DNA of 64,000 nucleotides from Leminorella grimontii ATCC 33999 = DSM 5078 (GCF_000439085.1 NZ_AUUA01000004.1:180773-244772), one strand, 5' to 3'; positions 14,942-33,913 are shown, numbered from the stretch's first letter. The notes: generated by a model not told the origin, from the sequence alone. A program made the numbers and translations.

Positions 14942-15017
14942 TGGCTCCTCTGACTGGACTCGAACCAGTGACATACGGATTAACAGTCCGCCGTTCTACC
15001 GACTGAACTACAGAGGA
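14942..15017 (-). tRNA. asn tRNA: tRNA-Asn (anticodon GUU)
   Basis: The reverse complement reads TCCTCTGTAGTTCAGTCGGTAGAACGGCGGACTGTTAATCCGTATGTCACTGGTTCGAGTCCAGTCAGAGGAGCCA. This is identical to E. coli tRNA-Asn including the encoded CCA. Confidence 0.97.
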
Positions 15018-15355: not shown

Positions 15356-17914
15356 GTGCGTTTATTTAATTCCATATCATTAAAACCGCTAGTGACGCTG
15401 CTGTTTGTGCTGCTGTTGACGATTACGCTAAGTTCGGCGCTGTTTCTCCAGTTTCGCAATGAATTGCGCATTTTTGAAAGGCTTAGCGACCGCGTGACGG
15501 CGACGCACATTGAGTCCGTTGGCACCCATCTTTTCAACTTTATGGAAGTTCCTATCCAGTCTAACGCGGCCGTTGAAATGGTAATGCGGGAAGTTCTGGA
15601 TGCCCCTAAAGATACGCTGGAAGAGTTTGAATCACCGCTGAAGAGCACGATGGAAAAAATATTTCCCAATATGCCTCAGCTCAGCCTGATTGCGTTTGGT
15701 TCGGTTAACGGGAATTACATTGCGGTTGACAGAGGCACTGAAAATGGCAATTTTCGACTGCTGTTAAAAGACGCTAGGACTCACGGCGTAATGAACTTCT
15801 ATTCGGGGATGAGCATTCAAAGTCCGATTATTAATAGCGTTAACCACTACGATCCTCGTCTTCTGCCTTGGTACCGTGATGTAGAAATTAATCGCCAAGC
15901 TGTCTGGACTACGGCCTATTGGGACCTCAACAAGGTTAGGGAACTGACGATTTCTTATAACAGCCCCGTCTATGACGCCAACAGGCGGTATGTGGGGGTC
16001 GTCTCCAGCGACATCAAGGTTGAGCGCTTTAATCAATATTTACGTTCTATCCCCAGCTTGGGCAACGGCGTGATATTCGTTCTGGATGGCGACAACGAAA
16101 TGATTTCTTATTCGTCGAACGATAAGCTCTATAACGCGCCGGAGAGAGGAACGTTACTACACGATAAGGCTAAGCTTCGTACCCCGCTGGACAGCACTAA
16201 CCCCATTATTCACACCATGGCGCCCTATTTGGTTGACAGAGGGCTGGATAAGTTCACTTTTACTTTGAATGGTGAAATATTTCATGCTCGAGTTGCTCCC
16301 TTTGGCGCTTCGCTGGGGCTAAAAGATTGGCGGATCGTTGTCGCCGTACCTCGAAGTGACTTTATTGGCAGGCTTGACGCCGACAGGCGTACAACTATTT
16401 TCCTTATTTTAGGCGTATTTCTGGTTGGCATAACTCTGGCCTGGGTTGTTTTATCAAAAGTGACCACACCGATATTGGACGCAGCCCGACAGGCGAAGCT
16501 GCTTGCCCGGCAGGAGTGGTCTCCGTCCCACGAGTCGGGCTTTCAGCTTAAAGAAATCCGGCAGCTTAATAATGCGTTTAACGAGATGTCATCCCGGCTG
16601 TCAGCGGCCTTTTCGTCCTTGAAACATCAAGTTAACTACGATCCCGTGAGCGGGCTTTTAAGCGCCGAAGGGCTGTTGGAACAAATGAAGGCTCTCGATT
16701 TCTCGGGGAAAAAGCCCAAGTGGCGTGGGTTGATAATGCTAAGCCTGGATAATATTAGCGACGTCAACAACACGCTAGGCTATCAGAAAGGTGAGTGGCT
16801 GTTGGGCGAGTTTGCGGCGTCCTTAAACGCTATTGTGCCTGAAGGCGCGCTGCTTGCCCGGGTCAACGACGTCGAATTTGCCGTCTGCTACCCCGAAAGC
16901 CACCAGGGCGATATTCTGAAAGATAAAATTCCGAAATATGTTCATCTCTACACCCACTCTCAGGGCAGTGAGCACCTGATGTTTGTCGGTAATATTGCTT
17001 TCGTTGATGAAACGTTTGACGACGAATCCTTAACGGAGTATCTGCGTAAAGCGTCTCTGGCACTGGTGAGCGCACGCAAAAAGGGTACCGGCGCCTATGA
17101 AGTATATCGGCCGGAAATGATGACTCAGGCAGTTGAGAATACTCGAATGCTGTCGGAATTAAGCCAGGCGCAGTTTAATCAAGAACTGCTGGTCTACTTT
17201 CAGCCTATCGTTGAGTTGCGCGACGGCAGAGTTATCGGCGCGGAGGCGCTGATCCGCTGGCGGAGTAGGGCCTATGGCATGGTGGCTCCCTACGTTTTCA
17301 TTCCTTTAGCGGAAGAGTCTGGTCTTATTCTCTCTATCGGCCGCTGGGTGCTAAAAGAGTCGTGTCGCCAACTGGCGTTGAAGATTTCTGCCGGCTGGCC
17401 GAAGGACTTTATGATTCATATCAACGTTTCTGCCCGTCAGCTTATGCAGCCTGACTTTTATGATTCCATTGTAGAATCGCTGCGCGAAAGCGAGCTTTCT
17501 CCATGTAATCTTGCTCTCGAACTCACGGAATCCATTCTGGTAGAGAAGGGAACCATCATTGGCGAGCAAATTGCGAAAATCAGGGCATTAGGGCTTTCGG
17601 TCGCGATCGACGACTTCGGTTCCGGCTTTTCCAGCCTTTCTTATTTATATCGTCTACAGTTTGATTGCCTGAAAATTGATAGAGACTTCGTCTGTGGCGT
17701 ACTTGAAAGCGGCAGGAGCGAAGCGATCGTCTCTGCTGTCGTGCGACTGGCTGACGGGCTATCCGTACCGCTGGTTGCAGAGGGTATTGAAACCGAGGAG
17801 GCTGCCGCGAAGCTATATCACTTGGGCTGTAAACGCGGACAGGGTTACTATTTTGGCAGACCGATTCCGTTGGATGAATGGGAAAAGCCTGAGGGAGATG
17901 GCAAGAGAGGGTGA
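15356..17914 (+). CDS. membrane c-di-GMP phosphodiesterase: periplasmic Cache-type sensor, degenerate GGDEF, intact EAL
   Basis: 852 aa. Two TM segments flank a roughly 300-aa periplasmic Cache-like domain. The GGDEF position reads RVNDVEF, which is degenerate. EAL motifs are present: ELRDGRVIGAEALIRW, DDFGSGFSSL and EGIETEE. The GTG start at 15356 is uncertain. Confidence 0.8.
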   Translation: MRLFNSISLKPLVTLLFVLLLTITLSSALFLQFRNELRIFERLSDRVTATHIESVGTHLFNFMEVPIQSNAAVEMVMREVLDAPKDTLEEFESPLKSTMEKIFPNMPQLSLIAFGSVNGNYIAVDRGTENGNFRLLLKDARTHGVMNFYSGMSIQSPIINSVNHYDPRLLPWYRDVEINRQAVWTTAYWDLNKVRELTISYNSPVYDANRRYVGVVSSDIKVERFNQYLRSIPSLGNGVIFVLDGDNEMISYSSNDKLYNAPERGTLLHDKAKLRTPLDSTNPIIHTMAPYLVDRGLDKFTFTLNGEIFHARVAPFGASLGLKDWRIVVAVPRSDFIGRLDADRRTTIFLILGVFLVGITLAWVVLSKVTTPILDAARQAKLLARQEWSPSHESGFQLKEIRQLNNAFNEMSSRLSAAFSSLKHQVNYDPVSGLLSAEGLLEQMKALDFSGKKPKWRGLIMLSLDNISDVNNTLGYQKGEWLLGEFAASLNAIVPEGALLARVNDVEFAVCYPESHQGDILKDKIPKYVHLYTHSQGSEHLMFVGNIAFVDETFDDESLTEYLRKASLALVSARKKGTGAYEVYRPEMMTQAVENTRMLSELSQAQFNQELLVYFQPIVELRDGRVIGAEALIRWRSRAYGMVAPYVFIPLAEESGLILSIGRWVLKESCRQLALKISAGWPKDFMIHINVSARQLMQPDFYDSIVESLRESELSPCNLALELTESILVEKGTIIGEQIAKIRALGLSVAIDDFGSGFSSLSYLYRLQFDCLKIDRDFVCGVLESGRSEAIVSAVVRLADGLSVPLVAEGIETEEAAAKLYHLGCKRGQGYYFGRPIPLDEWEKPEGDGKRG

Positions 17915-17971: not shown

Positions 17972-18047
17972 TGGCTCCTCTGACTGGACTTGAACCAGTG
18001 ACATACGGATTAACAGTCCGCCGTTCTACCGACTGAACTACAGAGGA
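17972..18047 (-). tRNA. asn tRNA: tRNA-Asn (anticodon GUU), second copy
   Basis: Same sequence as copy 1 except one T-loop change (GGTTCAAGTCC vs GGTTCGAGTCC). About 40 bp of 5' flank is shared (gcgcatcatatccg...ctgtcaac). Confidence 0.95.
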
Positions 18048-18717: not shown

Positions 18718-18930
18718 TTATTTCACTTGGTACCAAATAGACTTTGGAACTTTGCCCAAATCAAAAAGCTTACCAGCAACCAGCTCTGCACGACGGTGAT
18801 CGGCAGCGCGATACATATTAGCCAAAATACTATTATCAGACAAAGAATAGTTTAGCTTATCGTAAAGACGCTCTAAGCTATCTTCGTTAGAACACTTACG
18901 AAACATCATTAAATAATCAATATCACTCAT
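18718..18930 (-). CDS. hypothetical small protein (70 aa), orphan ORF in AT-rich region
   Basis: Only ORF in the 1.1-kb AT-rich stretch. Reasonable composition but no recognisable family. Lies about 200 bp downstream of the ADH gene on the same strand. Confidence 0.25.
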
Positions 18931-20283: not shown

Positions 20284-20579
20284 CGTTATCTCCCAATAGC
20301 GGGCATATATAAAGCTATGCGCTGAGTGGCTTGACCTTCAAGGTACTTCTGTAAGCACCGTTTATTGATGCTTATTTTAGTGAGGGATATAAATATAGCC
20401 TATTTGCACCAGCCGCTTTACTGACGTGGGATAAATTATATTTCATTTTTATTTTCTTGTTATAGAAGGAGTAATTTTGAGATTGCGTGCAGATTTAATA
20501 AATAGTGCAGGAATGTATGAAGCGGAGCAATATCGGGGACAAAAAAGCCGACCCTAAGGTCGGCTTTGCAATGCGGTGA

Positions 20580-21965
20580 TTAAAGGAACACGCCGCCGGA
20601 CTCGCCCAGCTTCTGATCGCCGGCCTTAGGCTTAGCTTTTGCCTTTGGCTTGGATGAGGTTGCTTTGGCCGGCTCAGCCTTGGCCTTATCGGCTTTAGCT
20701 TCGACTACCGGAGGGGCTAAGCGTGCGACAGCGCCTTTATCTACGGCTTCGATTTTACCGCTTTCGATTACGCCGTAAGAGATTTTGTCTTTAATTGAGG
20801 TAATCACGATGGTCGCGACTTTCTCTTCAGCGGCGCCGAGCACTTCACCCGTATCCGGATCGACCAGCTCTTCGCCCTGAGAGTAAATGTCAAAACGGTC
20901 GCCGTCATAAACCATGGCTTCGCCGCGGTTGATAATAACCTGACCGTTCGCCACGGCAACGACTTTAGCCGGCGTCAGCTTGTTAACGATTTTATCGGCG
21001 ATAACGTCGCTAATTTGCTTACGCGCGGTTTCAATGTATCGGCCGCTTTGCTCAAATACCGTAGAGTCAGACCACTGAATGCCGTGGGTTGCCGCTTCCA
21101 ACAGGGAGTAGCGAACGGTGACCTTGGTTTTTGACGAACTGGAGACGTCAAATTCGCCAGTCAGGTCAACGCTGGTGACTTTGGTGGTCGTTCTTACGCC
21201 GGCTTCGGTCACGTTAATGACCAGCAGATAGTCAGCGGGTAGGGCGGTTTGGCGAACGTCGATGGAGTTGTTCAAACGGCCTTCCAGAAACTTCTCTTCT
21301 GCTTCAAAAGCCTTGTCGTTAGTCGCGCTGCGATCCAGTACGGTGAAGCGCTGTGACTGAACGATACGGTCAGTGATTTCCTGACGAAGCGTATTGGCGA
21401 ACGCCGAACGGCTGCGGTTGCCGGTAGTGATAATCGCCAAACGATCGCGCTTTGAAGCCGCTTGAGACGTTTTGCGTTCTACCTTATCGATTTCAACGGT
21501 CAGAATAACCGTACAGCCTTTGGCATCGCAGTCGCGCGTTTTAACCTTATAGCCTTTTACCGTACCTGCGCTGCGCGTGTCTATCTGTGCGCTTTTGCCG
21601 GTATTTACGGTAACGTCGCGGTTGGCGTTTCCGCCTACGTTAACGTCAAGGTTTTCGGTGTAGGTAGAGTCGCCGGCCTTGTTGCTGAGAAACGAATTGT
21701 CGTTGTTCTTCGTATTCTCAACGTAGGTGCCTTTTCCTTCCACGTTAACGTCGGCTTTGTCTTTGATACGGACATAGTCACCCGCACGTTCAGACTGCGT
21801 TTTTACGGTCATTCCATTCACCTGACGAACGGCGTCGGCCAGAGCGGCATCGACGGCTTTTTCGTAGGTTTCACCGTATCCTTGTGCTTCGACGGTTTCA
21901 ATTTTTGCAAAAGCAGAAGATGAAAACGCCAGAAGTCCTACAAGTACCAAGATCCATTTTTTCAT
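20580..21965 (-). CDS. secreted protein with N-terminal LPP20-like domain, central CsgG-like (COG1462) domain and Lys/Ala/Pro-rich C-terminal tail
   Basis: Sec signal MKKWILVLVGLLAFSSSAFA. LPP20-like IETVEAQGYGETYEKAVDAALADAVRQ. CsgG-like LAIITTGNRSRSAF...RFTVLDRS...ADYLLVINVTEAG. Tail AKADKAKAEPAKATSSKPKAKAKPKAG. Probable start is the ATG at 21965; the TTG at 21971 in the ORF track is less likely. Confidence 0.7.
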   Translation of the reverse strand: MKKWILVLVGLLAFSSSAFAKIETVEAQGYGETYEKAVDAALADAVRQVNGMTVKTQSERAGDYVRIKDKADVNVEGKGTYVENTKNNDNSFLSNKAGDSTYTENLDVNVGGNANRDVTVNTGKSAQIDTRSAGTVKGYKVKTRDCDAKGCTVILTVEIDKVERKTSQAASKRDRLAIITTGNRSRSAFANTLRQEITDRIVQSQRFTVLDRSATNDKAFEAEEKFLEGRLNNSIDVRQTALPADYLLVINVTEAGVRTTTKVTSVDLTGEFDVSSSSKTKVTVRYSLLEAATHGIQWSDSTVFEQSGRYIETARKQISDVIADKIVNKLTPAKVVAVANGQVIINRGEAMVYDGDRFDIYSQGEELVDPDTGEVLGAAEEKVATIVITSIKDKISYGVIESGKIEAVDKGAVARLAPPVVEAKADKAKAEPAKATSSKPKAKAKPKAGDQKLGESGGVFL

Positions 21966-22047
21966 TAGCAAGCCCTAATGGATGAAACAAACTTATGCGG
22001 CACAGCCCAATCTCTTGTCGGGCGCGCCGCTCCTAGGCATTCCGTCA

Positions 22048-22665
22048 TTACCAGCTGGCGGTGCGATTGTCGCCGCGCTTGATGATGGGATACTCTTTTT
22101 CCCAGTAAGCCAAACCGTCATCGAGGTTGGTCAGCGTCAGCTGGAAGTAGTATTCAACCTGCTGAGTGCTGGAGTTTACGGTACGGTTTTGCTGAATGAT
22201 CTTACCGGTCAGCGAGAAGTCAGGTGCGATAACGCGGCCGTCTTTCTTAACGGTTTTCTGGTTGACCATCTTGGAATTACGCAGCTGGCGCACTTTACGG
22301 GTCATCTCATCTTCCGGACCGTTGGCGCTAATTGCCGTAGTCACTACGAAACGGCCAGAGTTTAGCAGGCTGGTGCGGATTTTCTTGGTCAACTGATCGG
22401 TATCGATACGCTGATCGGTGTCGTTGATAATGCCGGTAACCGTCAGTACATAACGACCGCCCTGCGGATGAACCAGCAGGTCGGAGCTCAACATGTCGTC
22501 AACCATGTTGGTCGCCGCCATTTCGAAGTCCTTATAGTCCAGGCCCATAATGGCTACGTTATCGTTTTTGCTGTCGACGTAGTAGGCGCCATCCTGCGCA
22601 CATCCAGCGAGAGAAAGGGCTACTGCCGCGGCAAGAAAAGTCTTTTTGTTAAAAATAGTCATCAT
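22048..22665 (-). CDS. LpoB-like / DUF799(GNA1162)-like outer-membrane lipoprotein
   Basis: Lipobox LSLAGC. The motif pattern YKDF..MV..ML / YVLTVTGIINDTDQRID..LTKKIRTSLLNSGRFVVT / DFSLTGKI resembles LpoB-family activator lipoproteins. Sits 76 bp upstream of the CsgG-like gene. Confidence 0.6.
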   Translation of the reverse strand: MMTIFNKKTFLAAAVALSLAGCAQDGAYYVDSKNDNVAIMGLDYKDFEMAATNMVDDMLSSDLLVHPQGGRYVLTVTGIINDTDQRIDTDQLTKKIRTSLLNSGRFVVTTAISANGPEDEMTRKVRQLRNSKMVNQKTVKKDGRVIAPDFSLTGKIIQQNRTVNSSTQQVEYYFQLTLTNLDDGLAYWEKEYPIIKRGDNRTASW

Positions 22666-22720
22666 AACGTTCTCAACATAAGTTTAGGGTTATTACGATA
22701 TCGATCCCTCAAGGGAAATT

Positions 22721-24091
22721 CTACATCGCATTCTTACTGGTTAATACGTCCACTTTAGGCTGCATCAGCGAATTTATACTGCGCACATAAACGACCACGG
22801 GCTGTGGCGTTGCCGGCAGATCGACGGTGATAGCTGAACCTCCTGAAGGAGCAATCTGAATCTTTTGACTGCTGGGCCATTTGACATAGGCAACCTGAAA
22901 ATCGTAGGGAAGCGTATGCCAGCTGCGGATATCGGCCTGAGTGGTGACTGCCTGGGCAATCCCTGTGATAGCGCCGAGGATCCTGACCGTTTTATTATCC
23001 GAGTTCATCATCGTCGCCTGCGCTGCCGTCTTCAGAACGGCGCGAGTGAGCTCTTTAATAAGGATTCCGGTAAATTCCGTTTTAAATTCACCCTGAATGA
23101 TTTTATCCATTTGGGCGAAGGATTCCGTTTTAGTCCCTCCATTGACTGAAAGATAAGGATACGCCGGGCTGCCTGATTCCAGCGTCGGTAGTGCAATACC
23201 CGCGTAGGCTACGCGTTTGGTTAATAAAATCAACGGTAAATCAATGCGCCGTTCGACTTTCTGAGCCGCCGCGCCGTTTTCAAAAATCACCCAGACGCCG
23301 GGCGGAACGCTGCGGCCTTTGCTGTTCGCCAGACTGAGGTCTGAGCGAATCTGACGGTTGCGCGTTAGCGCATAGGCGCGCTTAAGGCTTTCCTTGGCTT
23401 TGGCCAAATCGCCTGCGCTTTCGTTATTAATCAAGAAATAAAGGCCGTGCAGATAGAGAGAGGCGGGGTTGATATAGCCATCATAGGGCTTCCACTTGTC
23501 AACATCGATCCCTGATCCTTCCAGCGTTTCCATTGATTTTTTATACGTATCGCCCAGGTTATTGCTTTTTATGGCGCTTTTCTGCTCATTGATCTCTTTT
23601 GAAAAATGTTCCGCGGCCCTGCGCTGGCGGTCGTCAACCCGGTTCCACTCTACGCGGGCGTTGTTAAAATCGGCCTGTTGCCAAAAGTTCAGCGCCTTAT
23701 AGGTATTCACCATCACTCGGTCATAAACGCGCGGAGAGTAGTCCATGACGTTGTCGTTGACAACCATAGACGCAGCCTGGCTGAAGCCGGACGCCGCGAT
23801 GTTTTTGGTCTCATCCTCTTTAATCAGAAGCTCTGCGCCGTCAAAAACTTTGGTTGAACGGTCCAACTGGTTGGTCATGCGAAGCAGGGCGCCCGCTTCC
23901 AAAGACCACAGCAGGTTTGTCGCTTCGCCGCTGCCGGATACGCCTTCATCCAGCGCAATTTTTTCCGCCATTTCAATCTGACCCTGAGACAGGGAGTAGT
24001 CAAGGTTTTTACGTGAGGGGGGATTAGCGCAGGAGGCTAGAGTTAGGGCGATGCCACAGCAAAGCGATATACGTGAGATCTGATTTTTCAT
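22721..24091 (-). CDS. large lipoprotein of unknown function (456 aa)
   Basis: The start is the ATG at 24091 (MKNQISRISLCCGIALTLASCANPP, lipobox LASC). The 64-codon upstream extension in the ORF track is rejected. Helical and repeat-like content. Lies 55 bp upstream of the LpoB-like gene. Confidence 0.65.
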   Translation of the reverse strand: MKNQISRISLCCGIALTLASCANPPSRKNLDYSLSQGQIEMAEKIALDEGVSGSGEATNLLWSLEAGALLRMTNQLDRSTKVFDGAELLIKEDETKNIAASGFSQAASMVVNDNVMDYSPRVYDRVMVNTYKALNFWQQADFNNARVEWNRVDDRQRRAAEHFSKEINEQKSAIKSNNLGDTYKKSMETLEGSGIDVDKWKPYDGYINPASLYLHGLYFLINNESAGDLAKAKESLKRAYALTRNRQIRSDLSLANSKGRSVPPGVWVIFENGAAAQKVERRIDLPLILLTKRVAYAGIALPTLESGSPAYPYLSVNGGTKTESFAQMDKIIQGEFKTEFTGILIKELTRAVLKTAAQATMMNSDNKTVRILGAITGIAQAVTTQADIRSWHTLPYDFQVAYVKWPSSQKIQIAPSGGSAITVDLPATPQPVVVYVRSINSLMQPKVDVLTSKNAM

Positions 24092-24279: not shown

Positions 24280-24978
24280 TCAATTAAACCTCCGCCACAG
24301 CTGAATAAACTGCTGTTGGTAGAGATTTAAAAGATCGGGATTGTCCGTTACGAGCACGTTTTCATAGTTATGTTGAGATGCGCTCTTCGTCCAATTAAAG
24401 CTGCCGTTAAGCAAATAGCGGCCGTCAAAAATCGCGAACTTATGGTGCATATGATAGGGCGTATCGTCCATGACGATAGAAATGCCCTTACGCATCAGAT
24501 AGTCGATATCGCTGCCGCGGTCTTCCGACTTATCGTCATCAGTAATAATTCTGATTTTAATATTTCGCTGATGGGCACGCATAATAGCGTCGGTGATATC
24601 ATCATCGGCGATAGTGAATACGCAGATGTCAGCGCTTTGCTTTGTATGGGAGAGGAGGGCGCAGATTTTATCGCGACAGGCGTTGCCGGGAGAAAAAAAG
24701 GCAGTGCTGTTAACCTGTTTTTGCTGGCCGGAGAGGTCCAGCGTTTTAACAACCGTTTCCAGCCACTTCAGCACTGGCTGAAGATCGGTCGGAGCGGTAT
24801 CGAGATGGTCACGTACCAGATCGAAAGCGCGATTGCGCATGAATCCATACTGCTCCGCCGTGAGCGACTGGCTGATTTCCCTTAACTGGATACGCTCCCC
24901 CTGGCTTAACGAAAGATCGGCCAGCGAGTCTTCGAGGTAGCGTTCCAGCTCTTTATTTTCCATTGTCCTTTTTCTCAT
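24280..24978 (-). CDS. phospholipase D-family protein with single HKD motif (Nuc-like endonuclease fold) and unique N-terminal extension
   Basis: HMHHKFAIFDGRYLLNGSFNWT contains H-x-K-x4-D...GSxN. 232 aa, no signal peptide. Alternative start MENKEL at 24963. Confidence 0.75.
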   Translation of the reverse strand: MRKRTMENKELERYLEDSLADLSLSQGERIQLREISQSLTAEQYGFMRNRAFDLVRDHLDTAPTDLQPVLKWLETVVKTLDLSGQQKQVNSTAFFSPGNACRDKICALLSHTKQSADICVFTIADDDITDAIMRAHQRNIKIRIITDDDKSEDRGSDIDYLMRKGISIVMDDTPYHMHHKFAIFDGRYLLNGSFNWTKSASQHNYENVLVTDNPDLLNLYQQQFIQLWRRFN

Positions 24979-25811: not shown

Positions 25812-28800
25812 CTAGTTCCTCAATGCCTGGACGCTTTCAACCAGCGATGCCAGCTGAACAACAACGCGATCGCCGACGTCTGCGTTATCGCCGCCCAGCG
25901 CCTTGTTTTTCATAAAGTCGCGCTTAATTTGCTGCCAGCGCAGGGTCTCTTCCGGCGACATGGTGTCTCGAATTTCCGCCAGCTTAAGCAGGTTCTCTTC
26001 TGCGCCTTGAGTCAGCAGCTGCGCTTCTCCCAGATAGTGATCGTCAAGGATCTGGCGAATTTCTGCGGCGTTCATCACCGCCGAGATCTTCTCGGCCAGC
26101 TTGTTCATGTTGCGGTAGCTGCCCTGAAGCTTAAAGGGCGGTTCGGTTCGGTACTTATCCGACTGCGCGGCGCTGGCGATGTACTGCTGGTTGACCTTCA
26201 GCACCACGTCGCGCAGTGAAATCATGCGTTCCAGAATGGCGACGATCTCGCTAATTTCCGCTTCGCTATACTGATAGCTTAGCGACGTTGCGGAGAACGG
26301 CTTGCCCATGGCCTTATCGACAAACAGATAGAGATCGTTCATATCCCGCAGCGCCAGCGGCGCCAGCACAGGATTGGACGTCAGGCTGTTTTCTATATAG
26401 CTTAAGGCAAAGGCCTCTTCCATTCCGCCAAGCACTTCGCCCAGATTGTAGATGTCCGCCCGGTTGGCCAACATGTCGGGAATTTTGAATACCTCGCCGG
26501 ATTCCGTATACGGGTTGCCGGCCATGACGACGCAGAACTTTTTGCCGCGCATGTCGTAGGTTTTGGTCTTTCCTTTCCAAACGCCCTCGATGCGCCGCGT
26601 TCCGTCACACAGCGAAATAAACTTCTGCAGGAACTCGGGATGCGTATGCTGAATGTCGTCCACGTACAGCATCACGTTGTTGCCCATTTCCAGCGCCAGG
26701 TTGAGCTTTTCCAATTCCTGGCGGGCGGTGGCGTTCGGCGCCTGCTCGGGGTCGAGAGAAAGCACGTCGTGCCCCAGAGCAGGACCGTTGATCTTCATAA
26801 AGATCAGGCCCAGGCGGTTAGCGACGTACTCCATCAGCGTCGTTTTGCCGTAGCCGGGCGGAGATATCATCAGCAGGAGGCCCATCAGGTCTGTCCGCTT
26901 GTTTTCACCGATGGTGCCGATTTGCTTAGCCAGGTTATCGCCGATGATAGGTAGATACACGTCGTTAATCAGCTTGTTGCGAACGAAGGAACTTAGCGGC
27001 TTGGCCTTAAATTCGTGCAGGCGCAGGGCGTTTCTTTGCTCATTTAGCGCCTCCTGACGCAGCGACTGATAGCGCTGATAGCCGGGAATGAAGACCTTAC
27101 GCTGTTTGCGCATGCGTACGAAGTAGTCGTCTAACCTCAAGTGCAGAGACCTGTCGACGATAAGCGGATGTTCGCCCATCAGATCGCTTACCGTGAAGTG
27201 CAAATCGGCTTCGCTAAAGCGGGCAGTGGCCGATTTGTCCAACAGCGTGAGAACAACCGCTTCGGCAACGTAGTCGCACAGCGAAGCGTATTCCGGCAGA
27301 GAGCATAGCCCCTTGAGCCAGTTTTCTATCAGCGACCAGCGCTGGGCGTAGCGATGGCCCAAGTTCTGCTGGGACTGAATAAAGTCGCGCCACATGTGGG
27401 CCTGCGTCAGCCTGGCCTGTAGCCCTTCCAGCAGCGTTTTAGCATATTTGCTAAACGTAAACTCAAGGGGCGAGCGTCCCAGCGCTAGGCTGAGATATTC
27501 GGCAGCCTGGTGCTGTTGGTAAGGCTGGCAGCTTATCGGATTTTGCTCAAGGAACAGGCTTAACTCGGCCTCTATTTCCGCCTGCAGATCGAGCAAGCCT
27601 GAGTCGTGCCGGAACAGCTGTAAAATATTAAGGCTGGTGCGTGCGCGCTCCGGCCACAGCGACGGCAGCTCCTGCTTTTGTACGTGCTGCCAGAACAGCA
27701 CCGCCAGGCCGCGCGCCAACGGGTTAAAGCGCAGCAAATCCGCGCTTTGCCCGACCGGAATCAGCTTTTGTAAAATCGCGACGGCGTCATGGTCGTGAAT
27801 GCCTTTTTCATACCCTTCGCGGTAGCGCGGCGCGGCGAAGTCTCGTACGGCTTTTTCCAGCGCTTCCGGCTGATTAAGCAGGCTGGTCAGCGACTCCAGC
27901 GTTAGCCCGTCCTGCTCTTTGCTTGCCGCGTAAATCATCGAATAGGCCAGATACTCAGCGCGATAAACGCTGTCGGACTCAGACTCTATCGAAATTGGCC
28001 AGTAATCTTTCAGCTCGTCGAGTTCAGGCGTATTCAGCGGTTCCTGATAGTCGGTACCAGTCAGGTGTAGGAACAGGCGATCGCCGTGGGGCAAAATCGT
28101 GAGATCCAGCTCCTGCGTGTTGACGCTGAAACGATGGCGAGGGCCTAGTTTGATAACGCTGCCGTCGTTTTCAAAGATTTCCGACTTGTCCCTCAGGCTG
28201 CGGATAGCCTGATCGCGGGCGGCTTTGAACTTGGCGTCGATGTCGTCCGCTTTGACGCTGTCTTTCAGATCCCTTAGTCGCTCAACGATTTCCCTCGTTT
28301 TCAGCGAAAGAGGATCGGAGGCAAAGAACGCATTGAGCTCGTCCTGCGCGTTAAACTTGGCGGTTCGTCTGCGAATGCTGTCCAGCAGGCGTTCGGCGGC
28401 GACCTGAAGGTTTTGCGCCTTGCGTTGGCGCTCGTCAAGCAGCGCCTGCTTGTGGGTTTCAAACGTTTCCAGCAGCTCTTCGCGCTTGCCGAGAATGTCG
28501 TTTAGAAACTCATCGTGTTCGCTAAATTGGCTTTCCAGCTCTTCAAGCTGAACCAGCAGCCTTGAAAGCTGTTCATCGCAGCGCTCTGGGTCGGTTGCCA
28601 GCGAGAGCGCGTTGGCGATCCCCTGGCTGAACAGCTTGAACTGGGCGCCGAACTGAGCGACGGACTCGGTTGAGGTTTGCTCTTTACGGCGCTGCTGTAG
28701 CCGGGCTCTGGCCTGATTAAGCCGGGCGTAAATCTCTGAAATGGACTCAATGATGCGCGTTTGCTGCGTAGTGTCTTCAAACCGAAGCGACGCCATCAGG

Positions 28801-30749
28801 TTGGAGAGCATGTCCAAGTCTGCCGACATGGTGTCCATTTCGGCCATTGGCTCGGCCAGTTGGGCGCTGTTGACGGCCTCCTGGGTTTGCTTTTCCAGAT
28901 TTTGCAGGCGCTGATTGAAAGGGACAAGCGCCGCATCGCCGGCAAGAAACGACGCCGTCGCCAGCGAGATACGCTGCTGGCTTTCCGCCAGCTGTTTTTC
29001 CATCTCGTCTAAGCGTGCCAAATCGATATAGCGGTAGTCGCGCAGGGTGATAAGGTGGCCGCGCTGGACGCTCAGGGCGTTTAGCGCATCAACGAACTGC
29101 TGCGCGTCGGTCCAGCTGTCCGGCAGCATGGCGGACAGCAGCTGCTTTTGGCGCGTCGTCGCTTCGTTCATCGCGCGTACGGACTGGCGGCGAATGCTTT
29201 CTACTTTTTCGTATTCGTCCAGCACCAGCTCGCCGGTTTGGGCGATTTCTTTAAGCAGGATGGCGGCAAACAGGCTGTGCTCATCGTTAAGCCAGTAGTA
29301 GATGTCAATCAGGCGACGGGCGTCCTGACTTAGCTTTTCATAAAGCTGAGAGGAGATCTGCTGCTGTTCGATCTCTCTGGCGATGTGGTAAAGGTCGGAA
29401 ATCCCTCGCACCAGCTCGGCGTTGCCGATGCGGCCAAAGAAGCTGTTCTTGGCCGGCTGGCGCGCCGCGAATTCTTCCGAGTAGAAGGGCGTTTGCCAAA
29501 TCTGCATGGGATGAATGCGCGTTGGCTCGTCGGACTGACCTTCAAACAGCACCATTTTGCCGTCTTCCAGCATCGCGTAGCCGTGACCGAACAGCGGATT
29601 TTGCAGCCTGCGTTCGATCATGTTGTAGTTGAACAGCGCCAGTCGGCCTCGGTTGGGCTCATAAAATATGTACATGACGTCTTCGCCGTTTGGCGAACGC
29701 CTCACGCGGCGAAAGCGCATGCCGTCCATCGGCTGGTCGAAGGTTTTGTACTCGCCGTTTTGCAGGTAGTAGCCACCGGGGAAAATGATGCCGTGGTCTT
29801 CCGGCAGCTGGATACAGGCCTGTCCGATGGCGTCGATGCGCTGGACCGTTTGCGTCAGTGTGTTATAGACCAAATAGCGCCAGCTCTCTTCACGGTAGGG
29901 CAGCACTTTGATAAGGATCAGGCTGCCGGTTTGCGCATACTCGATTTGGGCGTCGTCCAGAGATTGGGTTTTATCCAGCACCGCTTCGCGATAGATCCCC
30001 AGCCCGTCCTCGGTGTTGTTTTCACACTTGATGGTCAGATCGCCGCCGATGGTTTCCACAAACACCGTATCAAGGATGTTCATGTGTGGATGTCGGCCGT
30101 TAACGGCATTTTCTCGCGTGGTTTTGTGCCATTCAAAGTCGTAGGCAGGGGGAAGGGCGATGTCGCGCTCGCCGCGGTTATCGATATAGCGGATTTCCGT
30201 CTTATCGCTTGAGATAGACCAGCGGAACACGCGGATGTCGGAGATGCGCTCGCCTATTTGAAAGCTGGCCAAAAGTTTGCCGTCGCGCTCGACCAGCTGT
30301 AGCAGCTGCGTGTTCTTGTAGTAGGTATAAAGCTCGTTGAAGTCCTGCACGAAGCTTTGAACGTTTAAGAACGTACCGGCCAAGGGGACGGACTCGACGT
30401 CGTACTCGCCGTTTTCCTCTTTTAACCGATAGAGAGAGAACACGTCTTCGATGCGGGTTTCTCTTTTTAGCCCGATAAAGACGTTATAGCCAAACAGCAG
30501 CCAGTCGCCGACGCGAACAATATCGCGGGCGACGCAGTTGTTTTCGGTACGAATACGAATGCGGCCGATGGCGTCCATTTGGCTTTTGCCAAACTCTTCC
30601 AGACGCCGGGCATTGAGCACGGCGGCTTTCTCATGCAGCTGTTGACCCTGTTCAGACAGCCGCTTGCGTAAGATATCGTAGGCGCCGCCTTCGGCAACGG
30701 CGTTATCCAATAATTCCTGTTCGCGCTGGTTTGTTTGACTGTCTGACAT
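25812..30749 (-). CDS. giant coiled-coil protein with C-terminal AAA+ ATPase (MoxR/AAA_5-like); unknown function
   Basis: The ORF is open 25812-30857 (1681 aa). The most plausible start is ATG 30749 (MSDSQTNQ, preceded by aaggga), but the start is ambiguous. N-terminal roughly 500 aa is beta-rich. A coiled-coil region of about 500 aa is rich in L/Q/E/R. C-terminal Walker A ISPPGYGKTT, Walker B VMLYVDDIQ, sensor VVMAGNP. Confidence 0.8.
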   Translation of the reverse strand: MSDSQTNQREQELLDNAVAEGGAYDILRKRLSEQGQQLHEKAAVLNARRLEEFGKSQMDAIGRIRIRTENNCVARDIVRVGDWLLFGYNVFIGLKRETRIEDVFSLYRLKEENGEYDVESVPLAGTFLNVQSFVQDFNELYTYYKNTQLLQLVERDGKLLASFQIGERISDIRVFRWSISSDKTEIRYIDNRGERDIALPPAYDFEWHKTTRENAVNGRHPHMNILDTVFVETIGGDLTIKCENNTEDGLGIYREAVLDKTQSLDDAQIEYAQTGSLILIKVLPYREESWRYLVYNTLTQTVQRIDAIGQACIQLPEDHGIIFPGGYYLQNGEYKTFDQPMDGMRFRRVRRSPNGEDVMYIFYEPNRGRLALFNYNMIERRLQNPLFGHGYAMLEDGKMVLFEGQSDEPTRIHPMQIWQTPFYSEEFAARQPAKNSFFGRIGNAELVRGISDLYHIAREIEQQQISSQLYEKLSQDARRLIDIYYWLNDEHSLFAAILLKEIAQTGELVLDEYEKVESIRRQSVRAMNEATTRQKQLLSAMLPDSWTDAQQFVDALNALSVQRGHLITLRDYRYIDLARLDEMEKQLAESQQRISLATASFLAGDAALVPFNQRLQNLEKQTQEAVNSAQLAEPMAEMDTMSADLDMLSNLMASLRFEDTTQQTRIIESISEIYARLNQARARLQQRRKEQTSTESVAQFGAQFKLFSQGIANALSLATDPERCDEQLSRLLVQLEELESQFSEHDEFLNDILGKREELLETFETHKQALLDERQRKAQNLQVAAERLLDSIRRRTAKFNAQDELNAFFASDPLSLKTREIVERLRDLKDSVKADDIDAKFKAARDQAIRSLRDKSEIFENDGSVIKLGPRHRFSVNTQELDLTILPHGDRLFLHLTGTDYQEPLNTPELDELKDYWPISIESESDSVYRAEYLAYSMIYAASKEQDGLTLESLTSLLNQPEALEKAVRDFAAPRYREGYEKGIHDHDAVAILQKLIPVGQSADLLRFNPLARGLAVLFWQHVQKQELPSLWPERARTSLNILQLFRHDSGLLDLQAEIEAELSLFLEQNPISCQPYQQHQAAEYLSLALGRSPLEFTFSKYAKTLLEGLQARLTQAHMWRDFIQSQQNLGHRYAQRWSLIENWLKGLCSLPEYASLCDYVAEAVVLTLLDKSATARFSEADLHFTVSDLMGEHPLIVDRSLHLRLDDYFVRMRKQRKVFIPGYQRYQSLRQEALNEQRNALRLHEFKAKPLSSFVRNKLINDVYLPIIGDNLAKQIGTIGENKRTDLMGLLLMISPPGYGKTTLMEYVANRLGLIFMKINGPALGHDVLSLDPEQAPNATARQELEKLNLALEMGNNVMLYVDDIQHTHPEFLQKFISLCDGTRRIEGVWKGKTKTYDMRGKKFCVVMAGNPYTESGEVFKIPDMLANRADIYNLGEVLGGMEEAFALSYIENSLTSNPVLAPLALRDMNDLYLFVDKAMGKPFSATSLSYQYSEAEISEIVAILERMISLRDVVLKVNQQYIASAAQSDKYRTEPPFKLQGSYRNMNKLAEKISAVMNAAEIRQILDDHYLGEAQLLTQGAEENLLKLAEIRDTMSPEETLRWQQIKRDFMKNKALGGDNADVGDRVVVQLASLVESVQALRN

Positions 30750-30911
30750 AGCGTGTAGCATTCCCTTTAACGATTCTACGCGCGCAGCCAGCGGGCTTAC
30801 GCGCTTCATAAGACTGACTGAGATAAGAACACGGCGCCGTATGCTTATCTCAGCCAACGTGGGCTAAAAACGCCCGACCTTTACCAGAGTAAAAGCCGGG
30901 CGCAGAGGACG

Positions 30912-33089
30912 TTACTCTTCGCTCACGCCGTGGTTGCCTGACGCGCCGGGCAGCGCTTTAGTGGCGCCAAACTGCTTTATCAGCGCCTGAACTTCAGGGT
31001 TTTGCAGCAGGGCGTCGAGGTCCAGCTTTTGGCCGTCCTTGCCGCTTAACAGCTTGTCGACCACGTTTTGCACCAGCGGGCTCTTTTCCACCACGCCGTT
31101 AATGGCTTTGCCTACGCTTAGCGCTTTAGAGAAGGTGTTAAAGAAGCTGCCGTCACCGCCCACAATGTCGATATTGGTCTTGCTGAGGGCCGACGCCAGA
31201 ACCTCCGCCTGCTCGCGAGCAATCTCTTTGTTGGCGGCAATTTCGGCCATGGCCTGCTCAAAGTGCTTCTCAAGACGCATGCGGAACTCTTCGTGGCTAC
31301 GTGCCGTATCGTTGAGGTTGCCCATAGCGGTGAACTTGTCGGTCAGACCGTCCGCCTCGGCCTTCAGGCGCTGGCGAATCACTTCGGCCTGCGCGGAGCC
31401 CAGTTGGCCCTCACCGCGAGCCTGTGCGCTCAGTTTTTCTTCCAGGATCTTGGCTTCCGCCAGACCCAGCTTCTCGTTAGCGGTGGCCTGCTGTTCGTCG
31501 CCGCGCGCTTGAGCGCTCAGCTTCTCTTCCAGCACCTTCGCGTCCGCCAGCCCTTGCTTCTGAGCGGCTTCGGCCTGCGCTTCCATCACGCGAGCCTGAG
31601 CCAGACCTTTTTCCTGAGTGCCGCGGGCTTCAGCCAGCAGTTTTTCGGCGGTGATGTTAGCCTGTACCAGACCCTCTTTCTCTTCCGCCTCGGCCTGCGC
31701 TTGGCGCACGCGAGCTTCCGCTAGCCCGGTTGCGGCCTGCTCGGCCTCGATACCTTCGGCCATACGCTTCTTGGCTTCCGCCTGCTTGGCGGCGGCTTCC
31801 AATTCGGCCTGAGCCATGGTGCTTATTTCCAACGCCCTAAACTTCGCGCTGTTTTCATCGGCTTCCGCCTGCTTGACCTGGCGCACCAGCTCCTGCTCGG
31901 CTGCGGCCTGCGCCTGGATCACGGTGACCTGCTTCTGACGGTCGGCGTCGGAGATCAGGCGAACTTCTTTGATGCGCTCTTCTTCCTGAGCGACGGTTTT
32001 TTCCACCGCGACGCGCTCGCGGATCACGTTAGCGATGTTCTTACGCTCTTCTTCCAGCGCCTTCTCTTTTTCGATGCGCTGCAGCTCGACTTCACGCTGG
32101 CGAGAGACCACTTCCAGCTCTTTCGCGCGGGTGACCTTTTCCATTTCAATGGTGACCGCGCGGGTGCGGTTTTGCTGTGCGACTTCCACTTCACGCAGGC
32201 GATTTTCTTCGCGAATTTCAATTTCCTGCTGGGTTTGGATGCGGGCCTGTTCGGCCTTCAGGCGCTCTTCTTCCTTCACGCGCAGCGTTTCAGCCGCTTC
32301 ACGTGCGCGGATGCTCTCGATTTCGCGCTGCTGGCGGGCTTCGGCGTCGGCCTGCTGACGCTCCAGCGCCAGGCTGGCTTCGCGGGTTTCCACGTTTTTC
32401 TTCTGGATGGCCAATTCCTGATCGCGTTCTTTCTGGTTGGTCTCGATGTTGTGGATAGCCGTGATTTCGGTGATCTTACGGATACCTTCGGCATCGAAGA
32501 TGTTGTTCGGATCGAGGGAGCTTTTCGGCGTTTGTTCCAAATAGTCGATGGCGACGTCTTCCAGCGCGTAGCCGTTAAGATCTTCACCGATAACGTCAAC
32601 GATGCGGTTGCGGAAGTTCTGGCGGTCTTCAAACAGCTTGGACAGCTCGAACTGCTTACCGACGGTTTTCAGCGCTTCGGAGAACTTGGCGTTAAACAGC
32701 TCGCTGACCGCCTGGTGATCGGAGGCGCGGTCTACGCCGATAGACTTGGCGACCTTCAGCACGTCTTCCGTTGTTTCATTTACGCGCAGGTAGAAGGCAA
32801 CGGTGATGTCGGCGCGCAGGTTGTCTTTACAGATAAGGCCGTCTTTGCCGCGGCGGTCTACTTCAAGCGTCAGCAGCGAAATGCGCATGAACTCTTTTTT
32901 GTAGATAACGGGATAAACCAGCGCGCCGGTAAAGTGCACCTTGGGCTGAGCGGTCATGTCGTTGACGATAAGCGCCGTCCCCTGAGGCACCTTGATGTAG
33001 AACGCCTTAAAAAGTCCAAATACGCCTAAAATAAAGACGATGAACCCGCCGATGCCGACGAGAAACGGCATGAGGTTTTCCATAGCCAT
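30912..33089 (-). CDS. yqiK: flotillin-family SPFH/band-7 protein (YqiK-like, extended 725 aa)
   Basis: N-terminal TM then SPFH core (KVPQGTALIVNDM...RADITVAFYLRVN). Long E/A/R/Q-rich coiled coil with internal tandem repeats (AKVLEEKLSAQARGDEQ / AKILEEKLSAQARGEGQ). Flotillin C-terminal region. Confidence 0.85.
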   Translation of the reverse strand: MAMENLMPFLVGIGGFIVFILGVFGLFKAFYIKVPQGTALIVNDMTAQPKVHFTGALVYPVIYKKEFMRISLLTLEVDRRGKDGLICKDNLRADITVAFYLRVNETTEDVLKVAKSIGVDRASDHQAVSELFNAKFSEALKTVGKQFELSKLFEDRQNFRNRIVDVIGEDLNGYALEDVAIDYLEQTPKSSLDPNNIFDAEGIRKITEITAIHNIETNQKERDQELAIQKKNVETREASLALERQQADAEARQQREIESIRAREAAETLRVKEEERLKAEQARIQTQQEIEIREENRLREVEVAQQNRTRAVTIEMEKVTRAKELEVVSRQREVELQRIEKEKALEEERKNIANVIRERVAVEKTVAQEEERIKEVRLISDADRQKQVTVIQAQAAAEQELVRQVKQAEADENSAKFRALEISTMAQAELEAAAKQAEAKKRMAEGIEAEQAATGLAEARVRQAQAEAEEKEGLVQANITAEKLLAEARGTQEKGLAQARVMEAQAEAAQKQGLADAKVLEEKLSAQARGDEQQATANEKLGLAEAKILEEKLSAQARGEGQLGSAQAEVIRQRLKAEADGLTDKFTAMGNLNDTARSHEEFRMRLEKHFEQAMAEIAANKEIAREQAEVLASALSKTNIDIVGGDGSFFNTFSKALSVGKAINGVVEKSPLVQNVVDKLLSGKDGQKLDLDALLQNPEVQALIKQFGATKALPGASGNHGVSEE

Positions 33090-33268
33090 AAGATGAGTGT
33101 CTCCGTGTTATACAAAGGGGGCTGGGCCCATAAGCTTAAGGTTTAAAACCGCTACCGGCTTTTAGTCGATAGCCATTATTCGAATTCGCCCCGAGCGCCG
33201 TAAGGGAGAAGGGCCGCGCTTGAACGAGCCGCGGCATTCCCACAACATGCAACGGGTAGTGCGCGAGG

Positions 33269-33913
33269 CTATAGTCGATTAAATTCTTCTTCGCTGACCA
33301 CGTCATAGCTGTGGGTTGCGGCGCTGTAGCTGATAATGACGACGAGGTCTCCGCGCTTGAGGCCTGCGTCTTCCGCCGCTCTGATTTGTAAGATAAGGCC
33401 AGCGCCGCCGTCTTCCATCAGGGCTTCGCCACGGCGCTCCGTGACGCTGTCTGAGCGCACTTTAGCCACTTTGCCGATCAGGTTTTTTACGCTTTTTTCT
33501 ACGTTGGTTTTAGCGAGGATCGGGCGAAACGGTTTCAGGATGAAGGCGGTTATCAGCAAGGCTACAAACGAGACAACAACAAGTACGACGACGCCGAGCG
33601 GATAACGAATCAGGTCGGTGTCAATAAATCGTAAGAACCAGTGAACGCTAAAGTAGCTCATAAACCAGCCGATAAAGCTGAAAAATGAGAGGATGATGGT
33701 GATGGGAATGCCCGCCAGGCCGAACTTCGCCAGCCAGCCGGCCAAGCCGCTGAGGTCTGCGCCATCGATGTCGACATCGGGCGTGTCAACGTTGAGAATA
33801 TCGGCGTCCATAAGGCCAAAAGAGGCGCTTATCCAATAAAGTAGCGTCAGAACCAGCAGGCCGCTGAAGATGATTGCCGGGAAGGTTAGACAGTTTTGCA
33901 AGAATACGGCCAT
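33269..33913 (-). CDS. yqiJ: NfeD-like short-form membrane protein (YqiJ-like)
   Basis: 214 aa. N-terminal TM helices plus C-terminal OB-fold-like soluble domain (KVAKVRSDSVTERRGEALMEDGGAGLILQIR...GDLVVII). Canonical partner of SPFH genes. Confidence 0.75.
   Translation of the reverse strand: MAVFLQNCLTFPAIIFSGLLVLTLLYWISASFGLMDADILNVDTPDVDIDGADLSGLAGWLAKFGLAGIPITIILSFFSFIGWFMSYFSVHWFLRFIDTDLIRYPLGVVVLVVVSFVALLITAFILKPFRPILAKTNVEKSVKNLIGKVAKVRSDSVTERRGEALMEDGGAGLILQIRAAEDAGLKRGDLVVIISYSAATHSYDVVSEEEFNRL

Follow-up and report, generated by a model that had tools for sequence, protein, structure and literature searches.

Three consecutive genes of Leminorella grimontii raise the question of which cell-envelope system their products form and whether that system exports a cargo. 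The genes lie on the minus strand of the 64,000-nt stretch of DNA that was analyzed (the window) and are transcribed in the order A, B, C. Gene A (22721..24091) encodes a 456-aa lipoprotein of the COG3014 family whose helical region is TPR-like and whose C-terminal domain is of beta/alpha type. Gene B (22048..22665) encodes a 205-aa LpoB-family lipoprotein with a short linker and a C-terminal extension ending in RTASW, and gene C (20580..21965, stop codon at 20580-20582) encodes a 461-aa Sec-exported FlgT-like protein. The length of gene C is counted from an ATG; a TTG at 21971 formally opens the reading frame and gives 463 aa. The gap between A and B is 55 bp, and that between B and C is 76 bp if the TTG is taken as the start of gene C and 82 bp if the ATG is. 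An earlier note had described a co-directional operon of three exported proteins, a description that the reading frames, spacing and export signals confirm throughout. Each gene has homologues at E < 1e-80 across several bacterial classes, thus these are real genes rather than chance ORFs.

Following gene C is an intrinsic-terminator-like stem-loop (AAAGCCGACC-TTAG-GGTCGGCTTT and a T-run; 20541..20567, minus strand) with a GC-rich stem, which appears to be the element that would close the operon. This stem-loop was read directly from the sequence, and 20567-20541 is not among the sites listed by a consensus terminator scan. The operon is flanked by a PLD gene next to gene A and an Fe-ADH gene next to gene C. 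The genes around the operon in the window include defence-like ones, which encode a PLD/DrmC-like nuclease and a Mokosh-like helicase.

Products of the three genes

The gene A protein carries the lipobox LASC with Cys21, and the cysteine is invariant or nearly so across the family, in agreement with the earlier designation of the first product as a 456-aa lipoprotein. Residues 25–256 (23324..24019, minus strand) form a TPR-like alpha-solenoid, where the invariant polar and basic residues mostly lie. The invariant positions in this region are N129, K132, N135, R146, E148, N150, R151, R155, R157 and R158, and the Asn, Lys and Arg positions are grouped in the TPR helices. Residues 265–451 (22739..23299, minus strand) constitute a conserved C-terminal beta/alpha domain with the motifs VWVIFENG and TxADxRxW..LP, for which no fold relative was identified.

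The gene B protein has the lipobox LAGC with Cys22, likewise invariant or nearly so across its family. It matches Pfam PF13036 (LpoB) with an E-value of 7e-42 (143 bits, cut-off 22.3) and the NCBIfam equivalog TIGR02722 with 158.5 bits (cut-off 110.55). LpoB was the sole family reported in a Pfam scan at E <= 0.1. The earlier note had proposed both LpoB-like and DUF799/GNA1162-type affinities for this protein; the former is upheld by these matches, and the latter is not supported, as the scan reported no match to PF05643.

The gene C protein has a Sec signal ending in AFA|K, as had been predicted, with no cysteine in this region in gene C or any member of its family. Because the signal peptide does not end in a lipobox cysteine, the protein is not a lipoprotein. 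The N-domain (residues 21–161; 21483..21905, minus strand) has a strand-helix...strand-strand, FlgT_N/LPP20-like arrangement with invariant C146 and C151, and is interrupted by an insertion of approximately 84 residues (51–134; 21564–21815, minus strand) that is predicted to be disordered. The alpha/beta middle domain (residues 174–330; 20976..21446, minus strand) belongs to the CsgG/LpoB/TolB_N/PelC/LptE fold group and contains one long beta-hairpin (residues 246–290), polar and rich in Thr, Ser, Lys and Asp, whose tip LTGE is invariant. A small FlgT_C/TsaP-like beta-barrel follows (residues 333–416; 20718..20969, minus strand). The tail (residues 417–461; 20583..20717, minus strand) is predicted to be disordered, is rich in Lys, Ala and Pro, as noted earlier, and ends in a conserved Q-x-LG-x-SGG-V-F-L.

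The best solved structure in a Foldseek search with gene C is FlgT, from the Vibrio flagellar H-ring (3w1e; 323 columns, E 1.9e-16), whereas CsgG is matched at an E-value of about 1e-6, ten orders of magnitude worse. The AF2 model has moderate confidence (pLDDT 60.8, approximately 35% predicted disordered), and its inter-domain geometry is unreliable, with TM-scores of 0.2–0.3. Its domains 21–161, 174–330 and 333–416 correspond to residues 24–109, 121–287 and 292–377 of V. cholerae FlgT, and gene C thus has the three-domain N/M/C architecture of FlgT. No Pfam match to FlgT_N, FlgT_M or FlgT_C above threshold was found in gene C. Its relatives have weak matches to FlgT_C (0.017) and FlgT_N (0.019), and FlgT_C is above threshold only in distant tandem relatives. 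Alignment of the gene C family profile using hhalign with the last module genes of Vibrio and Stutzerimonas gave 99.9% probability (E 1e-32 to 1e-34), with homology extending along the entire protein.

This gene had previously been interpreted as an unusual fusion of LPP20 and CsgG domains. At the level of fold, the N-domain is FlgT_N/LPP20-like and the middle domain belongs to the CsgG group. However, LPP20 (PF02169) is not matched by gene C or any family member in the Pfam scan, CsgG (PF03783) is not matched by gene C at E <= 0.1, and FlgT is the best match. PF03783 is matched by 7 of 19 family members, all from Alcaligenaceae (best 5e-11). Nor is the architecture unusual, since it is standard for a large family comprising 3143 representative clusters.

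Distribution and gene order of the module

A neighbourhood survey with the COG3014 profile yielded 387 species-level matches, from which 78 loci were usable. The genes are co-directional and occur in the order COG3014, [YcfL/DUF1425], LpoB-like, [DUF6844], FlgT-like, with brackets marking components that are not always present. An LpoB-like gene follows COG3014 in all 78 loci, and a FlgT-like gene closes the cluster in 76, so that the order recurs in 76/78. The module is found in Gamma-, Beta- and Alphaproteobacteria, Desulfobacterota, Planctomycetota and Lentisphaeria; an Azospirillum record is annotated with the same order. The flanking genes are unrelated between lineages. Together with the strict gene order (76/78 to 78/78 loci), this suggests that A, B and C would function together.

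The window operon follows the module order without the small DUF1425 lipoprotein. The earlier note had likened it to a module of CsgG-like proteins with small lipoproteins, which corresponds to the DUF4810/DUF799/CsgG-like module. Both are three-gene envelope modules built on the TolB_N-like fold group, but gene B matches LpoB and not the GNA1162-like family, gene C does not encode a lipoprotein, and gene A encodes a 456-aa COG3014 TPR protein as opposed to a small DUF4810 lipoprotein. The comparison is therefore replaced by membership in the COG3014/LpoB-like/FlgT-like module. Synteny of the module and its flanking regions is stable within Budviciaceae, a sign of vertical inheritance, and plasmids carry essentially no copies of the module. 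The finding for the window itself is a modest one: its operon is a compact version of a widespread module, in an ordinary, vertically inherited Budviciaceae copy.

The extreme C-termini of the module proteins are conserved. The LpoB-like proteins end in tryptophan in all 78 module homologues (TASW in gene B), and the DUF6844 proteins end in [DE]F in 52/52. The FlgT-like tail motif, with its GGVFL end, is present in 51 of 76 homologues; it is kept in 49 of the 52 loci without DUF1425 and missing from 22 of the 24 loci with it. Identity between Enterobacterales and Alcaligenaceae is 72–80% for B, compared with about 50% for A and about 41% for C, and B looks like a putative hub of the module.

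A related arrangement has been described in C. jejuni and H. pylori. In C. jejuni, cj0089-cj0090-cj0091 form one operon, Cj0091 is located in the outer membrane, and a Cj0091 mutant is poor in adherence and colonisation (PMC3100323). In H. pylori, deletion of hp0018 produces chains of outer-membrane vesicles and altered cell shape, HP0018 forms foci and co-immunoprecipitates with AmiA and MltD, and homologues of hp0018 are found upstream of hp1457, which is an LpoB homologue (PMC11394524). Both systems have a TPR lipoprotein of approximately 450 aa, a small lipoprotein and an LpoB homologue of approximately 205 aa, and cj0089-cj0091 mirrors the COG3014, DUF1425, LpoB-like order of the survey. 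Based on this matching architecture and the statements in the papers, Cj0089 and HP0018 are probable homologues of gene A. However, the papers describe no FlgT-like gene, and the window operon has no small DUF1425 lipoprotein. Vesiculation and cell shape (HP0018) and adherence (Cj0091) are the sole experimental phenotypes for this type of operon.

Similarity to known systems and alternative functions

Gene C shares with FlgT (PDB 3W1E, 8Z5N) the layout of an N-domain, a TolB_N/CsgG-like middle domain and a C-terminal beta-barrel. Like FlgT, it is Sec-exported, non-lipidated and encoded with two lipoproteins, here predicted to reside in the outer membrane, and the flexible C-terminal loops through which H-ring subunits touch parallel the conserved C-terminal peptides of the module. 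However, no flagellar genes (flgO/flgP or a flagellar cluster) flank the operon or the module at other loci inspected. The partners of gene C are COG3014 and LpoB-like proteins rather than FlgP (LPP20 family) and FlgO, and gene C has the additional insertion and tail; ring formation is proposed here by analogy. The beta-barrel also resembles the FlgT_C-like domains of TsaP, the type IV pilus secretin-associated protein (family profile against PDB: 6ve2_O, E 1e-5, and 3jc8), although gene C has no LysM domain and no pilQ context.

CsgG is a lipoprotein that forms a nonamer in which two membrane-spanning beta-hairpins per subunit build a 36-stranded barrel, and it is encoded with csgE/csgF and curlin genes. 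The earlier note viewed the third gene as secretin-like, which would have gene C oligomerise in the manner of CsgG into an outer-membrane channel through which the operon exports a cargo. CsgG and HfaB share the fold group of the middle domain, and relatives of gene C pass PF03783. We consider the channel reading highly improbable. Gene C has no lipobox, no Pfam CsgG match and no evident transmembrane hairpins; its one long hairpin is polar with an invariant tip, and it has additional N- and C-domains. A comparison of alternating hydrophobicity between this hairpin and E. coli CsgG, a simple measure of amphipathicity, did not discriminate. FlgT, which is not a channel, is the far better match across all three domains. 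No cargo, csgE/csgF-like, curlin, hfa or amyloid genes were found among the window neighbours scanned or, as judged from gene order, at the 78 related loci, and there is no sign of a channel or secretin-like function. On the related point of whether the genes belong to a characterised flagellar or curli pathway, the window scan found no such genes near the operon, leaving the earlier description intact in this respect. Since FlgT and TsaP both ring another machine, the trio could instead be an accessory collar around a trans-envelope machine whose genes lie elsewhere, such as the flagellar LP-ring, a type IV pilus or type II secretin, or a Tad system. The TPR half of gene A resembles secretin pilotins and partners such as PilF, PilW and TadD, but these matches are generic for TPRs. 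Flagellar, pilus and secretin genes are absent near the operon in the 64-kb window and beside the module at other loci inspected, and the hosts differ widely in motility apparatus; a collar of this kind is quite unlikely. Cargo secretion or a flagellar function for the operon is less likely than the envelope role proposed below.

Gene B could be a true activator of PBP1b like E. coli LpoB, in which case A and C would be accessory factors that regulate peptidoglycan synthesis. It belongs to the same Pfam and TIGR families, the equivalent Azospirillum gene is named lpoB by PGAP ("penicillin-binding protein activator LpoB"), E. coli lpoB directly follows ycfL (DUF1425) in a pairing found in many modules, and HP0018 co-immunoprecipitates with peptidoglycan enzymes. 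However, E. coli LpoB scores 218 bits on TIGR02722, so this model spans both subfamilies. Although its host belongs to the Enterobacterales, gene B shares no more than 23% identity with E. coli LpoB, and a phmmer search against PDB LpoB chains (E 0.5) revealed no orthologue-level similarity to the E. coli or Salmonella proteins. The Pro-rich linker of approximately 45 columns that follows the cysteine in E. coli LpoB is absent from gene B and all module homologues; this linker reportedly lets LpoB reach PBP1b through the sacculus. Gene B also has a subfamily-specific insertion and the SW extension, neither found in E. coli LpoB, lies outside a ycfL-lpoB-thiK-nagZ neighbourhood, and is without exception linked to genes for COG3014 and FlgT-like proteins, Planctomycetota and Desulfobacterota included. 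We regard PBP1b activation as unlikely, and the automatic activator label of the LpoB-like component is probably an over-annotation. Still less probable is that the module modifies the cell surface, as an adhesin, in phage-receptor accessibility or in phage defence, and is a horizontally exchanged accessory trait. The Cj0091 phenotype, a COG3014-domain protein with significant predictive value in phage-host data for Vibrio (bioRxiv 10.64898/2026.04.04.715981), a Vibrio module adjoining AlpA, RadC and DUF2787 genes, and the nuclease and helicase genes near the window operon would fit such a role. However, PADLOC gave no match for A, B or C, for DUF6844 or for the FlgT-like protein of Vibrio; A and B have no PHROG match, and C has a single weak match to a PHROG family of unknown function. 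The synteny in Budviciaceae and the near absence from plasmids point away from exchange, and all parts of the module are periplasmic or envelope proteins without enzymatic or nucleic-acid domains.

A putative periplasmic scaffold

The reading we prefer, though tentatively, is that the operon encodes a self-contained cell-envelope module comprising the two lipoproteins A and B and a soluble periplasmic FlgT-like protein C. In Enterobacterales, the residues at +2 and +3 after the lipobox cysteine govern retention versus outer-membrane sorting (the Lol-avoidance rule). These residues are Ala-Asn in A and Ala-Gln in B, with no Asp, and both proteins are therefore predicted to be sorted to the outer membrane. 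The analysis shows the gene structure and the export signals, the family assignments and the similarity in fold, and the strict synteny and the terminal motifs. We infer that A, B and C could come together as a periplasmic scaffold anchored in the outer membrane, perhaps as an oligomeric ring, by analogy with FlgT and its lipoprotein partners FlgP and FlgO in the H-ring of Vibrio or with TsaP around PilQ. Given the conserved terminal motifs, the C-terminal peptides (SW-COOH of B, and the flexible tail with GGVFL-COOH of C) would dock onto partner subunits; the most plausible dock, by conjecture, is the invariant basic, Asn-rich TPR surface of A. The scaffold would likely contribute to the upkeep of outer-membrane-peptidoglycan architecture or to local control of peptidoglycan remodelling.

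Two observations sit less easily with such a scaffold. Cj0089 of C. jejuni fractionated with the inner membrane, unlike what a purely outer-membrane-anchored model would predict (PMC3100323). In addition, the FlgT and TsaP rings surround another machine (the LP-ring and PilQ, respectively), and neither the operon nor its immediate surroundings encode a partner of this kind.

A bolder and rather doubtful extension is that the trio forms a flagellum-independent, outer-membrane-anchored periplasmic ring or lattice, related to the Vibrio H-ring and the TsaP collar but standing alone, and kept together by docking of C-terminal peptides onto the TPR lipoprotein. The enterobacterial ycfL-lpoB pair, with its PBP1b activator, would then be an offshoot that gained the long linker. 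If true, the trio would represent a new class of envelope super-structure, and a widespread one, and would suggest an origin for flagellar outer rings and LpoB.

At least several hundred species of several phyla carry the module, which has no assigned function and almost no literature. Once the third gene is seen to be FlgT-like, and the three genes to be a single conserved unit marked by diagnostic C-terminal motifs, what were 'hypothetical lipoproteins' become the subject of a testable envelope-scaffold hypothesis. This view also ties two sets of phenotypes, vesiculation and cell shape for H. pylori HP0018 and colonisation for C. jejuni Cj0091, to one defined system of several proteins.

Architecture and conservation of the operon

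The earlier note described three closely spaced genes for exported proteins, and the operon is real. On the minus strand of the window, gene A (24091 to 22721) encodes a 456-aa lipoprotein (lipobox LASC, Cys21), gene B (22665 to 22048) a 205-aa lipoprotein (lipobox LAGC, Cys22), and gene C (21965 to 20580) a protein with a Sec signal (AFA↓K) that is 461 aa long from the ATG used as the start in homologues, or 463 aa if translation begins at a TTG two codons earlier. Genes A and B lie 55 bp apart, and B and C 76 or 82 bp. A stem-loop followed by a T-run, resembling an intrinsic terminator, lies 3' of gene C on the same strand (20567 to 20541); it was found by eye and was not reported by a consensus terminator scan. 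The best matches of A and C are in Leminorella richardii (92% identity) and Pragia fontium (87% identity) respectively, both Budviciaceae.

The lipobox cysteines of A and B are kept throughout their respective families, and neither protein has an aspartate at position +2. Lipoprotein sorting in Enterobacterales is decided by Asp at +2, and lipoproteins without it go to the outer membrane. By this rule both A and B are predicted outer-membrane lipoproteins and should be sorted there.

Gene A has no matches in Pfam or NCBIfam; NCBI naming places it in the "COG3014 family". Its AF2 model is confident (pLDDT 85.6, pTM 0.86) and consists of a TPR-like helical half (residues 25–256) and a beta/alpha C-terminal domain (residues 265–451). 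A COG3014 profile identified relatives in 387 species genomes, from which 79 loci were retrieved (L009–L087, the related loci) and 78 were usable. ORFs were called in these and searched with our own profiles. An LpoB-like gene comes after the COG3014 gene at all 78 loci, and at 76 of them the last gene of the cluster is FlgT-like. The commonest order is A-B-DUF6844-FlgT-like (30/78), followed by A-DUF1425-B-DUF6844-FlgT-like and A-B-FlgT-like (22/78 each), with other orders at four of the 78 loci. The compact form found in the window, A-B-FlgT-like, comes from Budviciaceae and Alcaligenaceae in 21 of 22 cases and from Phycisphaerales in the remaining one.

The flanks of the module vary among lineages and are syntenic within Budviciaceae; the module is thus self-contained and, within this family, vertically inherited. 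A plasmid search found it to be essentially chromosomal and near-absent from plasmids. The copy in the window is an ordinary one. Its operon represents a compact version of an envelope module that is widespread and conserved and has no characterised function. Literature searches on COG3014, DUF6844, FlgT-like proteins and LpoB with DUF1425 found no study of this little-studied module, which now has a concrete, testable architecture. A DUF1425 protein of the module clearly matches a single PDB entry, 3o0l (E 3e-5), with a weak match to 4gio, a 'putative lipoprotein' (E 0.24); these matches are insufficient to equate it with Cj0090.

The LpoB-family lipoprotein

Gene B is the only one of the three window proteins with a significant Pfam assignment (LpoB, 7e-42), and it scores 158 bits on TIGR02722 against a cut-off of 110. 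On these scores its membership of the LpoB family, as the earlier note had suspected, is unambiguous. However, it shares only 23% identity with E. coli LpoB, lacks the approximately 45-column Pro-rich linker of that protein, and has both an internal insertion and an extended C-terminus with a terminal Trp. Pairwise phmmer searches against solved LpoB chains gave an E-value of only 0.5. Such divergence within an Enterobacterales genome indicates a linker-less paralogous subfamily rather than an orthologue of the PBP1b activator, and we consider it unlikely that gene B is a true PBP1b activator. Gene B is also far more conserved than its neighbours, with cross-class identity of 72–80% compared with approximately 50% for A and 41% for C.

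TIGR02722 gives E. coli LpoB 218 bits, so this NCBIfam model covers both subfamilies. PGAP annotates an Azospirillum p1 cluster as hypothetical, YcfL family, lpoB, DUF6844 and hypothetical, with the module-type gene (L091, 6792–7424) labelled 'lpoB, penicillin-binding protein activator'. This label on module-type genes is probably a systematic over-annotation, since the TIGR02722 equivalog spans both subfamilies. The canonical lpoB of E. coli lies directly 3' of ycfL, a DUF1425 gene (L008, 4248–5280), and the same adjacency occurs in five-gene modules (for example L006, 7457–8493). This suggests that the E. coli PBP1b activator pair descended from the module or shares ancestry with it.

The FlgT-like protein and conserved C-termini

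The window protein encoded by gene C has no significant match in Pfam and none in NCBIfam; its domain calls were made only from relatives and from structure. Alcaligenaceae relatives (approximately 40% identity) match CsgG, LpoB and GNA1162-like models and, weakly, FlgT_C and FlgT_N, and the family profile matches the FlgT_C-like domains of TsaP (E 1e-5). The AF2 model (pLDDT 60.8) shows three ordered domains, a disordered insertion of approximately 84 residues and a disordered tail. The protein has two invariant cysteines and no lipobox. The earlier note had called a CsgG-like domain and envisaged an outer-membrane channel or export complex. The domain call holds for the middle domain, at the level of the fold group, but the full gene C protein resembles FlgT, is not lipidated and lacks evident channel features, and a CsgG-type channel is very improbable. 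A test for the alternating hydrophobicity of CsgG-type transmembrane hairpins could not discriminate, even with E. coli CsgG itself. The earlier interpretation is partly right: the genes form an envelope operon with an LpoB-family member, but the third component is FlgT-like and not a CsgG channel.

The family is large, with 3143 representative clusters when the cut-off is E <= 1e-3; a cut-off of E <= 1e-30 leaves 265. In five-gene operons the gene C equivalent is the last gene: gene C is homologous along its whole length to the shorter last genes of the Vibrio and Stutzerimonas operons (hhalign probability 99.9%). DUF6844 is unrelated to gene C (0.2%) and was rejected as the equivalent. Relatives of approximately 900 aa had been considered as DUF6844-FlgT fusions, which was rejected; they consist instead of tandem CsgG-like plus FlgT_C units. 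Such metagenomic proteins (P0159, P0161, P0169 and P0187; locus L089) have two or three units, and one of them has a 300-aa FlgT_C-containing protein encoded upstream. They represent their own branch within the FlgT-like superfamily, one that had not been described.

The extreme C-termini are conserved throughout the module. LpoB-like proteins end in Trp at all 78 survey loci (22048–22053 in the window) and DUF6844 proteins in [DE]-F (52/52), while 51 of 76 FlgT-like proteins have a basic, Pro/Ala-rich tail followed by G-G-[VI]-[IF]-L (20583–20597 in the window). This tail is present at 49 of 52 loci without the DUF1425/YcfL-like lipoprotein and missing from 22 of 24 with it, counts that ignore kinship among loci. 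The two are nearly mutually exclusive and may fill the same role.

A putative envelope assembly and neighbouring genes

From the strict synteny, the export of all three products, two lipid anchors, a FlgT-like subunit, the C-terminal peptides and a TPR protein (gene A) with invariant basic and Asn residues, we infer that the products would form a periplasmic assembly anchored to the outer membrane and joined by docking of terminal peptides. The nearest working parallel is the H-ring of Vibrio, where FlgT, which is not lipidated, and the lipoproteins FlgP and FlgO build concentric rings linked via flexible C-terminal loops. That the products instead form a collar for a machine encoded elsewhere seems a little more doubtful than a PBP1b activator role for gene B. 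A surface, adhesin or phage-related role is quite improbable. What prompts it is that a COG3014 protein is among predictors of Vibrio phage-host interaction (preprint, bioRxiv 10.64898/2026.04.04.715981) and that one Vibrio module (L005, 1–5657; CP033457) lies in a mobile-island context beside AlpA, RadC, DUF2787 and YagK/YfjJ-like genes. The module proteins have no PADLOC match, and of A, B and C only gene C matches a PHROG family, weakly and with no known function for that family, so a defence or phage origin has no direct support.

For the anchored assembly, phenotypes of probable homologues point to a role in envelope and peptidoglycan maintenance. Deletion of hp0018 in H. pylori abolishes helicity and yields outer-membrane vesicles in chains, AmiA and MltD co-immunoprecipitate with HP0018, and the LpoB homologue hp1457 lies downstream of hp0018 homologues (PMC11394524). 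In C. jejuni, cj0089–91 form a single operon and a cj0091 mutant is poor in adherence and colonisation, with the caveat that Cj0089 was reported from the inner-membrane fraction (PMC3100323).

Immediately upstream of the operon, 189 bp from gene A, is a gene for a PLD-family (PLDc_2) protein (24280–24978, minus strand) with weak PADLOC DrmC/Mokosh-like matches; its synteny holds in Pragia, Budvicia and Limnobaculum, and it is missing from module flanks in other lineages. Beyond it (25812–33913, minus strand) are genes for a 1681-aa DUF3686/DUF7902/AAA ATPase, followed by those for 725-aa and 214-aa proteins without Pfam matches; the first two of these are kept beside the module in Budviciaceae. 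An 895-aa SF1 helicase (AAA_11/AAA_12, C-terminal DUF2726; 9896–12583, minus strand) scores approximately 150 bits on PADLOC Mokosh MkoA and MkoC and may be a defence gene. Two tRNA-Asn(GTT) genes (14942–15017 and 17972–18047, minus strand) lie on either side of a dCache-GGDEF-EAL gene (15356–17914), and an Hha-family gene (18718–18930) lies just past them. ARAGORN calls an 84-nt tRNA-Pro(TGG) (61082–61165, plus strand) within an 812-aa ORF (61001–63439); either the tRNA is a false positive or the start of the ORF is wrong.
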